Shown here piece by piece: positions 741-5,968 of a DNA stretch of 11,029 bases. The translations under genes were made by a program, and so were the position numbers. The notes below the pieces were generated by a model that was not told the origin of the DNA, ran no database searches, and saw only the letters and a list, made by a program, of their open reading frames with translations. Positions within the stretch are counted from its first letter, which is position 1, and every line of letters starts with the position of its first letter. Source of the stretch: a virus (taxonomy: Duplodnaviria; Heunggongvirae; Uroviricota; Caudoviricetes); the IMG/VR virus record IMGVR_UViG_2671181094_000005; one strand, 5' to 3'.

Positions 741-3185
741 TCAGCTGATACTGATACCTGCTGTGGATTTCTTCATCACCACAACCAGCAAATCACTGAT
801 ACTGGCTGTGGGATACCAGTCATTTACCAGCCACGCTGATACCGAAAACTCCAGCGTCATGTGACCGTGACCGGCAGGCATATCAATAACACCTGTATAA
901 ACCAGCGTATTATCCAGCGCGGTACGGTTATAAATTTCAGCACCGTTTTTCTTCACTATCAGGCGGCATGACGAATAAATATCGTTATTCTCCCGCTCAT
1001 GTTTAGCGTCACGAAACGCCACCGTGGGAATAACAATCTGCCGGTCAAACGGCTGATCGTCATAAACCCTGACGGTAATGGTCCCTGATGGCCACCGCTC
1101 CGGTGCACGGGAGTCCCGGGGGAAAGCTTTGCCCACTGTTTTAACGAGATCGCCTTCAATCTGGTTCGCAGACAGTTTTCCCAGAACCCGACAGTTTTCA
1201 TTTATCGTGACATTGTTGAGCGTCCCGGCGTTCGCATTCACACTGCCACTGATATCCGCATTTTTCGCCGTCAGTCGCCCGTCCGGTGTAAGGGAAAATG
1301 CAGGAGGATTACCGCCGCTGGTAATGGTGGGAGCCGTCAGGCGTTTCAGGAACACGTCGTTCATGAATATCTGATCACCCTGACCAACAAACATCGGCTT
1401 TGTGTTGCCATTCGCAGGATTAATCATCGCAATCCTGTCTGCCGCCAGCAGCACCTGACTCTGCATTCCTGCTGGCGTATTCTCAATACCGGCACCGATA
1501 CCCGCAATATAAAGGCGTCCGTCCTGCATCTGCTGCAGTTTCACGGCCCACATGCTGTTCAGGTTATTATTTGTATCAACCTGAACCTTCTGTATCTGCT
1601 GGATCGCTGCACTCTGGTCTTCCAGTTTCTTATTGACGGTCTGTGTGATTTCATTGCTGACATCCGTAATGGATGTCCTGATTTCAGCCAGGTCAGGCGC
1701 AAGCTGACCGTTATCAATCTGCGTCCACAGCTCCTGAGCCAGATGGGTTTTCCCTATCTCGCCTTTGAAAAAATCCAGATAGCCGGATGCGTCATCACTC
1801 GGCTGACCAACAGCCTCCACGAATGCCGATTTGCCAACGGTGTTCACACTGCGGATATAAAAGTAATAATCATGGCCCGGTTTGATATTGATACTGGCGG
1901 CTATCCAGTACAGCCCCGCACCAAGGTAGCGGGCTGTGGTTTCAACCTGCCTGATATCGGTAATCCGCGTTTCCGAGAACCAGAACTCAAACTGTACCGT
2001 CGGATCATAAACCGCAAGATGCGGCGTGGCAGTTATCTGAAAATAGCCCGGCGTCAGCTCAATCCGCGACGGTGCTACCGGTGCGGCAATCCGGAACGAT
2101 ACCGACGCCGGATCGCCCTGCTGTCCCCACGCATTTACCGCCCGGACTGTCAGCGTGTACCGTCCCAGCGCCAGTTGCGTGAAGCGGTATGTGGTTTCTG
2201 TCGTCCGGGCCGTGCTGACCAGCCGCTCACTGCCGTCGTCCGCTGCCACGGTCAGGCGAAGCATAAAGCTCACCCCCTTCACCACCTTCGGCGTGTCCCA
2301 GCGGGCCAGTACCTGATACTCCCCGCTGTCTGCGGTGACTTCGGCAGTCAGGTGCTGCACCGCTGGCGGCGTGACACCATTCACCGTGCCGCTCTGGTCG
2401 CCGTCAAAGTGCGCCCCGTTATCCACGATGGCCTCTTTTTCCGGCACATGCTGCACGGCGGTGATGGCATACGTGCCGTCGTCGTTCTCACGGATACTCA
2501 CGCAGCGGAACAGTCGCTGGCGCAGCGTCGGCAGCTTCAGCCCCCATACGCTGTATTCAGCAACACCGTCAGGAACACGGCTCACTTTTACCTTCACGCC
2601 GTCGGTGACGGACTGAACCTCCACGCTGACCGGACTCCCCTGCCCGTCAACCAGGCTTATCAGCGTGGTGCCGGAAGATGGCAGCGTGATTTCACGGTCG
2701 AGCGTCAGCGTCCGGGTCTGGCTGTTTACCGCCAGCACGCGCCCGCCGGTGCTGATACCGGCATAGTCATCATCGCAGATTTCAATGACATCGCCCGGTA
2801 CATGGCGAAGCCCTTCAGCACCCACGCTGAAATCCACGGTCTGCGTCTCCAGCAGTTCCGTTTTAATCAGCCACAGCCCGGCGCGGTGTGCCTGCCCCCG
2901 GCTGGTACAGCCAAAGGCATCCATCTTCGTGACATTACGACCGTAACGGGCAATGGCCTGCGTATCTTCAACAAGCTCTGTCGCCGTCTCCCAGCCGTTG
3001 TTCGGGTCAATCCAGTTCACCTCAACGGCATTATGGCGGTCCTTCAGGGCGCTGAAGCTGTAGCGGAACGGCGCGCCATCATCCGGCATCACCACATTAC
3101 TGCGGTTATAGGTCCACACCTTATCTGATGGTCGGTCCTGCACGAACGTCAGCGTCTGCCCGTTCCATACCGGCATACAGCGCAT
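741..3185 (-). pseudogene. J: Tail tip / host specificity protein J, N-terminally truncated (C-terminal ~815 codons only)
   Basis: Long minus-strand ORF whose translation from [22 protein letters not shown] onward is colinear with roughly residues 318-1132 of lambda gpJ (recalled from memory, identity not computed), including the fibronectin-III-like central region; the last ~130 residues diverge. Upstream of codon MRCMP the same frame hits a stop (3225-3227) and the preceding sequence is terminase-derived in another frame, so the J N-terminal third is absent. The ATG at 3212 in the ORF track is fortuitous. Confidence 0.8.
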
Positions 3186-3186
3186 C

Positions 3187-3519
3187 ACTGGCTTTAAAGG
3201 GATCCGGTTCATTACGGTAGCCGGTCATGGCATCCATGGCTGGCTGAAAATATTCACCGCAGTGCGGACATGGCCAGTACCAGCGGCGGCGGTCACCACG
3301 ATTGTAAAGGGAAAGAATACCAGTCGTCGGTGGCGCTTCATGAGGCGACTTACGTCGCCATTTGCTGTCGCAGATGTCACGTCCCGGCGAGCTCTCCACC
3401 AGAGTCATCCCGGCGGACATAAATGTGGTGGTACGTTTTGAGGCCTGGGAGAAACCATCACCCTCGCTGTCGATATTCTCCGGAAAACGGTCGTAATCGG
3501 TTAAGGCGACAAACCGGTA
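3187..3519 (-). pseudogene. Terminase large subunit (lambda gpA-like) internal fragment
   Basis: Translation ...YRFVALTDYDRFPENIDSEGDGFSQASKR...WYWPCPHCGEYFQP... resembles the middle of lambda gpA (DDDIEQEGSPTFLGDKR ... HVACPHCGEEQYLKFGD, zinc-finger-like CPHCGE motif), recalled from memory. No proper start codon; frame differs from the upstream Nu1-like fragment and the downstream J fragment. The 99-aa track ORF 3121..3420 is the tail of this frame running into J-derived DNA. Confidence 0.55.
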
Positions 3520-3665
3520 ACGGGGTTCCCCCTGACAGTCGCAGCCACAGGAGTGTTGGCCGCGAGGAGCCGTTTTTTTACTGTGTCCCGGTGAAGCCCA
3601 AAGGCCTCGGCGATTTTAAAAACACTCCAGTAATAAGCATCACCGATCCCGCTCACATTTGACAT
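3501..3665 (-). pseudogene. Terminase small subunit (Nu1-like) N-terminal fragment, 54 codons
   Basis: ATG at 3665 with GGAG 6 nt upstream; translation MSNVSGIGDAYYWSVFKIAEAFGLHRDTVKKRLLAANTPVAATVRGNPVTGLSP* has an N-terminal helix-turn-helix-like segment positioned like that of lambda Nu1, and lies about 198 bp downstream of a cosN-like sequence. Full-length Nu1 is about 180 aa, so this is truncated. Hand-translated; not in the supplied ORF track (below its length cutoff). Confidence 0.5.
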
Positions 3666-3875
3666 AAGCAACTCCATCTGGCAGGTGAAAATCAGGTTTA
3701 TTTATATATTTCAATTAATTGCAAACTAGTCTAATGACAGGGAGAAAAAAATATTGTACAGCTGAAAAGAGAAATAACTTTTTAATTATCAATAAATTAC
3801 CAAACATGCTGCCGCCGCCATGGAAATGCAAAAACTAGCCTTTTTCCGCGACGCTCCCGCCCCGTGGCAGGGACC
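3666..3875 (-). other. Candidate cos site (cosN-like core plus AT-rich cosB-like region) upstream of the Nu1-like fragment
   Basis: Minus-strand sequence GGGCGGGAGCGTCGCGG (plus 3846-3862) resembles the lambda cohesive-end region GGGCGGCGACCTCGCGG (13 of 17 by eye). It is followed by AT-rich DNA and sits about 198 bp upstream of the Nu1-like start, versus about 190 bp in lambda. Similarity is partial and judged from memory. Confidence 0.35.
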
Positions 3876-4228
3876 CCCACTGGGAGGACCCGACAGCCTG
3901 ACAACCGTGACGAGCATCTGAAACAGAGCTTTACATAATGGCATGGGGATAATTCAGAAGGACATCACAGCATGCCCACACAAATTAGTGTGAGTGTCCT
4001 GTTTCTTACTACGCGCAGGACTGACGAGCATGAGGGGAAAATACGAGAACCGAAATGCCTTATCTTCAGAAATGCAGCCGGCATCCGAACTGGACGATAT
4101 TGTAAATTCACCTAAATACGAGGCATTGCTGTAGTTGAATTGCATTGCTGTATTAGCCTGACAGTGACAGAATACGATATTGACTCTGTCACTTGTGAAA
4201 TGGTCAGAATGGTTAGCAGTTATGGTGA

Positions 4229-4435
4229 TCAGTCAACCACCAGGGAATAATCCTTCGTATTCTTATCGTGCTTTACTAACGCGGCCTCAATTGCCCTGAA
4301 TGCTTCCAGAGACACTTGATGTTCTATACATGCAATTACAACATCCGGGTAACCCATCGAAATGGTGCTATTAAGCATAGTTTTTACACGAACCTGCTCC
4401 TGGGAGGGGGCATCAGTGTATTGATCTTTATGCAT
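4229..4435 (-). CDS. Hypothetical small prophage protein (68 aa)
   Basis: ORF with ATG at 4435 and GGAG about 7 nt upstream; AT-rich moron region between cos and the GnsB-like gene. No family recognised with confidence. Confidence 0.45.
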
Positions 4436-4728
4436 TTTGTCGCTCCATGCGTTTGCTCTTCACTTACGGCTAAAAATATAACGTCAAATCACTCAGCATG
4501 AAAGAGTTAAAGATTCAGCGCGTTTCCCTTACATAATCTGTCGTTTGTATTCTCTTCAGGCATACCGGAAAGACTAGGTATTGTCACACAACCAATACCA
4601 TCGACAATCGAGATTTATACCTATTCGGTAATGTTTAAATATAACAAAACCCCGTAAAAACGAGGTTTATGGGTAATTTGTATTGTTGAATAGCATCTGA
4701 TGAGAAATTGATGCTAATACTAAACAGA

Positions 4729-5369: not shown

Positions 5370-5575
5370 TTCATTTTCACTTTCTTAAATCTAACGATAG
5401 ACGGCTAACATTTAAGTATTGTGAAATATTATCAAATGTAATCATCATTGATTTACAAAAGATACATTTTGCCCCGAAAGGATTCCTGTCAGAAACATCA
5501 AAAGATGATGTTCTATACTGAGAACCATGGCAACACGGGCATCTAAAGTGAATATGGTTTGTAATATTTTCTACC

Positions 5576-5788
5576 TCAAAGTGCCACAACATGAACAGCC
5601 GCGGGGCCTTTAGGTCCGTTCTCAATACCAAATTCGACTTCCTGATTCTCAGTTAACGTTTTGAAATCGTTGCTCTGAATAGCTGAGAAATGGACAAACA
5701 CATCTTTGCTACCATCTTTCGGCGTGATGAAACCAAAACCTTTTTCAGGGTTAAACCATTTCACTAAACCAGTCATTGTGTTAGACAT
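5576..5788 (-). CDS. cspI: Cold shock protein, CspA family (CspI-like)
   Basis: 70-aa product [70 protein letters not shown] matches recalled CspI almost exactly, with RNP1 (KGFGFI) and RNP2 (VFVHF) motifs. AAAGGTAATA sequence ahead of the start as in cspA. Alternative ATG one codon upstream at 5791. Confidence 0.85.
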
Positions 5789-5938
5789 CATTATTACCTT
5801 TTGAAGAAGTTAGCCCTTGGGCAGAATGGTCCGAAAAAAAATATCAGAGAGAAAAACCAACAAGGAAATCTCAAGAGGTACAAATAATAAAATTATAACA
5901 ATGACTGCTTCAGATAATTTTGTAACAAACCAGAACAC

Positions 5939-5968
5939 CATTAACGCATGATTAACCAACCATAGCAA
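5939..5968 (-). promoter_or_regulatory. Candidate cspA-type promoter (-35 TTGCTA, -10 GTTAAT/TTAATG) preceding a ~145-nt 5' UTR with cold-box-like element
   Basis: Minus strand: TTGCTA (5963-5968), 17-18 nt spacer, then TTAATG (5939-5944), followed by GTGTTCTGGTTTGTTACAAA. This resembles the cspA promoter and cold box (TTGCAT ... CTTAATG CACATCAACGGTTTGACGTACAGA, from memory). The long UTR is typical of cold-shock genes. Confidence 0.4.

Follow-up and report, generated by a model that had tools for sequence, protein, structure and literature searches.

A lambda-type cos site in a decayed Qin-like prophage

The DNA analysed here, called the window, is a stretch of 11,029 nucleotides recorded as a virus of the Caudoviricetes (IMG/VR record IMGVR_UViG_2671181094_000005). 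We are confident that its positions 3678-3891, read on the minus strand, represent the cos site of a lambdoid phage of the cdtI/Tritos type, essentially intact within a decayed prophage at the Qin locus. Judged from its sequence, the GC-rich element at the centre of this region is a genuine and nearly unaltered lambda-type cos, and an ordinary, expected relic in a decayed Qin-like prophage of Escherichia coli. Among the components of a lambda-like cos, the 12-mer, the CG pairs at both predicted nicks, the partial symmetry, cosQ, a putative IHF site and the position of the gene of the small terminase subunit (TerS) are recognizable. The corresponding features are listed in Table 1.

Table 1. 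Features of the cos region and of the terminase remnants in the window. Offsets (+) are counted along the minus strand from position 3862, the first base of the predicted cohesive end.
Feature	Position	Strand	Remarks
cosQ-like heptamer GGGTCCT	3885..3891	(-)	same as the cosQ heptamer of lambda and Gifsy-1
cosN	3849..3864	(-)	predicted 12-nt 5' cohesive end GGGCGGGAGCGT = 3862..3851; CG flanks each predicted nick
Predicted nicks	minus strand between 3863/3862; plus strand between 3850/3851		putative positions, read from the sequence
Conserved stretch CGCGGAAAAAGGCTAGTTTTTG	3829..3850	(-)	+13..+34, right of cosN; common to all three cosB/TerS types
Type-specific GC-rich block CATTTCCATGGCGGCGGCAGCATG	3805..3828	(-)	+35..+58, the position of lambda R3; candidate TerS site
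IHF core TATCAATAAATTA, equivalent of I1	3787..3799	(+), opposite TerS	+64..+76; perfect match to WATCAANNNNTTR
A/T run	3779..3783	.	5 bases instead of 4 (one extra A)
Direct repeat copy 1, TTTTCAGCTG	3759..3768	(-)	candidate TerS site; cdtI, Tritos and HannyBb read TTTTCACCTG here
Direct repeat copy 2, TTTTCACCTG	3682..3691	(-)	77 bp spacing; just 5' of the TerS start; invariant in the alignment
DUF1441-type TerS remnant	3501..3677	(-)	58-codon ORF: native residues 1-53, 5 foreign codons, stop
Internal TerL fragment	3181..3520	(-)	joined to the TerS remnant at 3519/3520 and to the J tail-tip fragment at ~3181

cosQ and cosN

On the minus strand, the core of the site reads GTCGGGTCCTCCCAGTGGGGGTCCCTGCCACG GGGCGGGAGCGT CGCGGAAAAAGGCTAGTTTTTGCATTTCC, the 12-mer GGGCGGGAGCGT being preceded by ACG and followed by CGCGG. 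An initial annotation of this DNA had described a GC-rich sequence on the minus strand followed by AT-rich DNA, placed it about 198 bp upstream of a TerS remnant and compared this layout with that of lambda cosN and cosB relative to Nu1. This description is borne out in its three parts. The GC-rich 17-mer GGGCGGGAGCGTCGCGG is located at 3862..3846 on the minus strand, and AT-rich DNA runs over about 185 bp from cosN to the terminase remnant. The distance of 198 bp is exact when counted from 3862 to the ATG at 3665, and the upstream ATG at 3677 gives +186. The lambda order is reproduced, with GGGTCCT, a spacer of 22-23 nt, ACG-12 nt-CGC, the IHF site and TerS at about 190 bp. In lambda, the cos consists of cosQ, cosN and a cosB with I1 and R3/R2/R1, and Nu1 starts at +191, so that TerS begins at about +190 in both. 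The span initially proposed, 3666-3875, covers cosN and cosB but omits the cosQ-like heptamer.

The junction reads GGGTCCT-22 nt-ACG, GGGCGGGAGCGT, CGCGGA in the window, GGGTCCT-23 nt-ACG, GGGCGGCGACCT, CGCGGG in lambda and GGGTCCT-23 nt-ACG, GGGCGGCAGCGT, CGCAGG in Gifsy-1; in this alignment the heptamer is separated from the nick by 22 nt in the window versus 23 nt in the two other phages. The 12-mer of the window is identical to that of lambda at 8 of the 12 positions (mismatches at bases 7, 8, 9 and 11; bases 1-6 are the same) and to that of Gifsy-1 at 11 of the 12 (mismatch at base 7). In the definition of Feiss et al. (PMC4669245), a lambda-like cos has such a 12-base end, and its natural variation is found in bases 7-12; the conserved elements are bases 1-6, the CG dinucleotides bordering the nicks and the cosQ of 7 bp, which stands about 20 bp upstream of cosN, with TerS starting about 100-200 bp right of cosN. 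The published differences between the Gifsy-1 and lambda ends are at bases 8, 9 and 11 (Feiss et al., PMC4669245), and the alignment is validated by the fact that the Gifsy-1 record, as read here, reproduces them. The two-fold symmetry of cosN concerns 8/16 bp in the window versus 10/16 in lambda, the latter count being in agreement with the published value of 10/16 bp (PMC9026076).

Related phages and distribution of the cos core

From cosQ to the TerS start, the window displays 97-99% identity to the phages cdtI, Tritos and HannyBb, which encode the same N-terminus of a DUF1441 TerS. HannyBb (PP925841) is continuous through the whole region at 98.7% identity. The initial annotation had considered that the similarity to known cos regions might be limited to the short GC-rich core; the homology extends beyond this core, covering cosQ, cosN and cosB and reaching up to the start of TerS. 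The records of cdtI (NC_009514, AB285204) and Tritos (OV696610) open with GGGCGGGAGCGTCGCGGAAAAAGG, their base 1 corresponding to position 3862 of the window. These record starts may themselves have been set by analogy, and the papers on Tritos, on Ayreon and on infant-gut coliphages contain no determination of the ends. Compared with the cos of cdtI, Tritos and HannyBb, that of the window is distinguished by the destroyed terminase operon, the extra A at 3779-3783 and a few SNPs.

A separate observation concerns mEp460_4F5 (LR595868), whose assembly derives from virions. It was opened 5 nt left of the predicted nick (L131 1-20 and the end of L132), and 3 nt (TCG) are missing exactly at the predicted right-hand nick. 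Such an anomaly is of the sort expected in assemblies at physical cohesive ends.

An exact 28-mer around the nick was detected in more than 120 IMG/VR contigs, where TerS starts at +185 to +187. The comparison of the IMG/VR loci (L008-L127, e.g. L008, L015 and L002) reveals that this single cosQ-cosN core is associated with three cosB/TerS types, with TerS proteins beginning with MELLM (179 aa), MDREL (164 aa) or MDHEL (163 aa). The presence of three cosBs on a shared cosQ-cosN resembles the case of lambda and 21, where cosQ and cosN are common and cosB is different. In IMG/VR mosaics with unrelated left flanks, the homology starts exactly at GGGTCCT, a convergence that would be expected for the boundary of a functional module.

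Six distant phages with a DUF1441 TerS (Fels-1, VT1-Sakai, mEp043, Klebsiella phage Kp4865-4, Citrobacter phage Chris1 and Gifsy-2) contain the motif CACG-12 nt-CGCGG at 129-201 bp before TerS, with GGGTCCT or GGTACTCC preceding it by about 22 nt. GGGTCCT is also kept in VT1-Sakai, mEp043 and Kp4865-4. In these six phages the 12-nt block is GC-rich, and the sequence right of cosN reads CGCGG(G/A)AA..GGC..TTTTT.

Concerning the complete genomes of E. coli, the full type-A cos (window 3666-3895) was recovered in 886 of 5,426 (~16%) and at least the cosQ-cosN core in about 39%. Among the matches listed, no E. coli genome has a RefSeq feature annotated under the cos. The literature search found no paper describing the 12-mer or dissecting the cos of a phage with a DUF1441 TerS; the query with the 12-mer returned an unrelated paper on a mammalian promoter and nothing else.

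Two divergent copies were observed in E. coli. In strain STEC383 (NZ_CP091026.1, L141 701-925), the same cosB and GGGTCCT are found with GGGCGACGGACG as the 12 bases between the CG pairs; one cosB type can therefore pair with a different cohesive-end sequence. Strain BH100N (NZ_CP025703.1) contains a PICI-like island of about 10 kb between cspD/yljB and clpS (about 1,023,166-1,033,300; L143 9167-19300), with genes for int, an HTH regulator, an Icd-like protein, DUF4222, primase and SSB. The cos of this island (L142 701-924) has the same cosQ-cosN-cosB with the 12-mer GGGCGGGAGCGT, and its homology to the window ends at the TerS start codon. It is followed by a gene encoding a ClpP-like protease/major capsid fusion and, 2.8 kb further, by the gene of a 161-aa DUF1441 protein. 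The island thus resembles a satellite making use of this type of cos.

cosB and the candidate TerS-binding sites

The GC-rich block CATTTCCATGGCGGCGGCAGCATG is invariant across the type-A cos sites, including the diverged copies of BH100N and STEC383, and in the type B and C cosBs it is replaced by other sequences. Its assignment as an R site is a candidate one, made by inference.

The initial annotation had proposed to search the region 3666-3840 for two further elements, an IHF consensus and terminase R sites. The first was found as a perfect core (Table 1). The type B and C cosBs, as well as Fels-1, VT1-Sakai, mEp043, Kp4865-4 and Chris1, contain an IHF core with 0-1 mismatch on the same strand, within +61..+77. 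When 44 distinct type-B cosBs are compared, the consensus positions of the core are fixed and its four N positions vary. The best match of lambda to the IHF core contains 1 mismatch and is located at +79..+91, on the same strand as the core predicted in the window. As for the R sites, a lambda-style R3/R2/R1 triplet was sought, and no inverted R2-like copy was identified; the candidates obtained are the GC-rich block that corresponds in position to R3 and two direct 10-mers, TTTTCA(C/G)CTG. Since two direct 10-mers alone turned up, the R sites keep the status of candidates.

Between -40 and +198, the window is identical to three loci with an intact TerS of 179 aa (L060, L073 and L115), except for one A in the run 3779-3783. 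The variant TTTTCAGCTG of the first repeat is thus also found beside intact TerS genes. The A-run has a length of 3 at the locus L092, again with an intact TerS, which indicates that this length varies naturally. The extra A is located beyond the IHF core and therefore leaves the spacing between cosN and the R3 position unaltered; on the distal side, it shifts the phasing of the IHF site relative to the repeats by 1 bp.

In comparison with lambda, the cosB of the window is unrelated in sequence, its TerS belongs to DUF1441 and not to Phage_Nu1, and R3/R2/R1 are not demonstrable. Gifsy-1, from Salmonella, shares with the window cosQ and the ACG/CGC flanks, but has a Nu1-type TerS and a cosB of its own.

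Small and large terminase remnants

The ORF of the TerS remnant opens with MELLMSNVSGIG. Its ATG at 3677 corresponds to the protein start MELLMSNV..., and a second in-frame ATG at 3665 (+198) to MSNVSG.... The upstream ATG is the start that RefSeq uses for cdtI gp01. The remnant matches the Pfam family DUF1441 with an E-value of 0.0011, a match that owing to the truncation falls under the curated cut-off, whereas a full-length relative matches with 1.7e-44 (PF07278). This intact relative matches DUF1441 only and gives no match with the Phage_Nu1 profile (PF07471), which is matched by lambda Nu1. The TerS of this module would therefore be Nu1-like in role while standing outside the Phage_Nu1 family.

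The AlphaFold model of an intact TerS homologue (mean pLDDT 84) displays an N-terminal strand-helix-helix-wing-helix arrangement at residues 11-64. The best Foldseek matches are MerR-like winged helix-turn-helix DNA-binding domains, the class to which the DNA-binding domain of Nu1 belongs; these matches are weak (E at least 0.04), and the claim is therefore limited to a predicted winged helix-turn-helix. A sequence search of the PDB with the intact TerS gave no meaningful match. Residue 53, the last native residue of the remnant, falls in the model within the wing of this N-terminal domain. A role of the remnant as a DNA-binding competitor was rejected, as the protein ends there, before helix 3.

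The comparison with cdtI by BLAST aligns window 3862-3519 with cdtI 1-343 and window 3520-3181 with cdtI 1224-1563. An 880-bp deletion relative to cdtI (bases 344-1223) thus fuses codon 53 of TerS to a central part of TerL. Both the TerS remnant and the terL fragment are labelled as pseudogenes by RefSeq in E. coli strain 127. With its terminase genes destroyed, the resident prophage is unable to make terminase or to cut its own cos. A longer ORF of 823 codons (window 741-3212, minus strand) was also noted, which runs in frame from inside the TerL fragment into the C-terminal ~815 residues of J, the tail-tip (host-specificity) protein; the TerL and J pieces under this ORF are both RefSeq pseudogenes.

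The prophage and its chromosomal locus

The window is 100% identical to the corresponding region of E. coli strain 127 and of several other isolates. In strain 127, this region is flanked by rspB on one side and by a truncated ydfJ on the other, at the site of the Qin prophage. The element measures about 29.5 kb and contains int, xis, dicB, ydfD, the Q antiterminator, essQ, rrrQ, rzpQ, cspI, ynfN and gnsB. The genes int and xis are annotated as intact and the replication region is broken by IS2. On the other side of the cos are found the terS, terL and J fragments, followed by lom, tail-fibre fragments, IS2 and pinQ.

The Qin prophage of K-12 contains an almost lambda-identical cos at the equivalent position, upstream of nohA, and the retention of a cos within the Qin prophage family is therefore already established. 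In K-12, Qin and DLP12 both represent, like the window, a complete cos in a defective lambdoid prophage beside a terminase remnant. The alleles differ in that K-12 Qin has a lambda-type cosN/cosB with a Nu1 homologue, whereas the window has a packaging module of the cdtI/Tritos type. The cos of the window is an unannotated yet ordinary instance, since cos retention in Qin and DLP12 has already been described.

The flanking pseudogene DNA is conserved among strains as well as the cos itself, and consequently there is no sign of cos-specific selection. A second cosQ/cosN was found neither within 49.7 kb downstream nor in the 78 kb examined of the strain 127 chromosome. The hypothesis of a cos-to-cos transduction via a second chromosomal cos was dropped, none being present in these 78 kb.

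The Gram-negative PICIs of the EcCICFT073 type carry a phage-type cosQ-cosN on a non-autonomous element, which can be used by the terminase of a helper (PMC6739421, PMC9026076). In contrast with the window, which has nothing comparable, PICIs excise, replicate and carry Rpp with its own R3 to redirect TerS. The set of characters of a PICI (int, regulator, primase-replicase, own cos, packaging-redirection gene and a size of ~10-15 kb) was not recovered for the window; with its 29.5 kb and the presence of Q, lysis genes and remnants of tail genes, the element corresponds to a decayed lambdoid prophage.

Predicted use of the site by a compatible phage

By analogy with lambda, the N-terminal winged helix-turn-helix of the TerS of a compatible phage would bind cosB, IHF would bend the DNA at 3787-3799, and TerL would introduce two nicks, one per strand and offset by 12 nt, at ACG, GGGCGGGAGCGT, CGC. 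Packaging would head to lower window coordinates, through the terS, terL and J remnants and lom, then into the host genes ydfJ, dcp, marRAB and lsr. In strain 127, the path from the cos comprises about 11 kb of prophage debris, ydfJ, dcp, marRAB (at ~30 kb) and lsr (at 45-50 kb).

A helper of the Tritos, cdtI or HannyBb type, superinfecting or co-resident, would probably cut at the cos of the window, and on the lambda model both cutting and the initiation of packaging in trans appear plausible. Tritos is an active prophage of LF82 and forms plaques on MG1655 (PMC9928086). The initial annotation had admitted as helper any lambdoid phage with a compatible terminase. This range has to be narrowed to phages with a type-A DUF1441 TerS, which include Tritos, cdtI, HannyBb and many prophages: lambda, 21 and phi80 would not initiate here because their cosB and TerS family differ. 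A mismatch in cosB results in a discrimination of more than 1000-fold between lambda and 21 (PMC4669245).

The productive packaging of the prophage DNA by a helper, which had also been envisaged, would need a second cosQ-cosN downstream, and the 49.7 kb downstream in the identical chromosome of strain 127 contain none. Termination of the lambda type requires both cosQ and cosN. In the absence of a downstream cosQ-cosN within a headful, the likely product, instead of a transducing phage, is a stalled, tailless and non-infectious particle. The docL particles of lambda, reportedly described by Sternberg and Weisberg in 1975, are said to be the classical precedent. The use of a prophage cos of shared specificity by an infecting phage leads to tailless particles (Feiss et al., PMC4669245). 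An efficient transduction from the cos of the window is unlikely.

The double-strand end produced at the cos would promote the recombination of the helper with the moron/lysis region left of the cos. If the lambda analogy holds, this stimulation would be a likelier and better-supported consequence than transduction. The cos region of K-12 DLP12 is a hotspot of recombination with lambda, and recombination on the cosQ side is enhanced when cos is broken (PMC3945230). On the cosQ side of the window cos are found gnsB, ynfN, cspI and lysis genes. Tritos carries ynfN, cspI, cspB and hokD, and HannyBb is 99% identical to window 3520-4300; both observations are consistent with such recombination traffic.

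The annotation of this cos indicates the point at which the chromosome would be broken by a compatible terminase and the direction of the ensuing packaging, with marRAB and lsr ahead. The site is also a likely boundary for recombination when phages of the Tritos/cdtI type enter a cell with a resident defective prophage. No new principle is involved, as earlier work has already described both the retention of cos in Qin and DLP12 and what follows from it.

Alternative interpretations

The site could be a dead relic, derived from a cos but no longer cut, on account of the 1-bp insertion in cosB and/or of the replacement of C by G in the first copy of the repeat TTTTCACCTG, and without consequence for the cell. 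The heavy decay of the prophage (880-bp terminase deletion, loss of the head and tail genes, IS2 insertions) is in keeping with this reading, as are the occurrence of the 5-A variant beside truncated TerS only and the equal conservation of the flanking pseudogene DNA, which gives no indication of selective retention. However, no difference from the sites beside intact terminase genes is seen in cosQ, in cosN, in the R3-position block or in the IHF core. Moreover, the A-run has 3 or 4 bases beside intact TerS and the insertion is distal to the IHF site, and the TTTTCAGCTG variant accompanies the intact TerS of L060, L073 and L115. We consider that a site inactivated by these two changes is improbable, and we retain an essentially intact cos.

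Such an intact cos may have been kept in the widespread Qin allele by its action on incoming phages, either as a decoy or as a break point made by their terminase, and we attach only a slim chance to this proposal. If it acts as a decoy, the terminase and proheads of Tritos/cdtI-type phages would be diverted, resulting in a partial defence. If it acts as a break point, the adjacent cold-shock and lysis morons would recombine into the infecting phages. Doc-like particles containing a ydfJ-marRAB-lsr segment would be a rare by-product.

It is very unlikely that the cos was retained as a useful element, i.e. as a decoy for the terminase and heads of type-A phages or as a signal by which a satellite-like element would be packaged with the help of another phage. 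The yield of an infecting phage is indeed reduced by a prophage cos that shares its specificity (Feiss et al., PMC4669245), the annotation of strain 127 gives int and xis as intact, and the PICI-like island of BH100N has the same cosQ-cosN-cosB without an adjacent TerS, from which it seems that this cos type is exploited by satellites. On the other hand, cos-specific selection is not seen, the replication region is disrupted by IS2, the element of ~29.5 kb has a single cos, and its TerS remnant is cut within the DNA-binding domain.

Finally, the chance is negligible that the region is an unrelated GC-rich repeat, a regulatory element or a small gene (51-codon ORF 3789-3944, REP-like) resembling cosN by accident, as the initial annotation had envisaged for a repeat: the automatic annotation of HannyBb does place hypothetical ORFs across the region, but the 20-mer ACGGGGCGGGAGCGTCGCGG (3846-3865, minus strand) is present in a single copy in the window with 0.00 matches expected by chance at up to 3 mismatches (200 dinucleotide-preserving shuffles), the homology to cos is continuous, the conservation follows the cos sub-sites rather than a reading frame, the flanks change right at GGGTCCT with three different cosBs behind it, and the listed genomes have no RefSeq feature there. 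The Rfam scan at gathering thresholds recovered no family at the cos site, and the promoter/terminator scan of 3400-4500 detected no promoter-like or terminator-like site; the reading as a regulatory RNA or a terminator was dropped after these empty scans.

Neighbouring elements in the window

Immediately left of the cos, the minus strand of window 4229-4435 contains a 68-codon ORF (WP_000548593.1), which corresponds to a conserved, uncharacterised gene. Lambda, HK629 and HK630 have, close to their right end, a hypothetical gene with which this ORF shares about 84% DNA identity. Further left, window 5549-5946 (minus strand) matches the Rfam family of the cspA thermoregulator with 109 bits (E = 1e-27), in the leader of the cold-shock gene cspI of the prophage.
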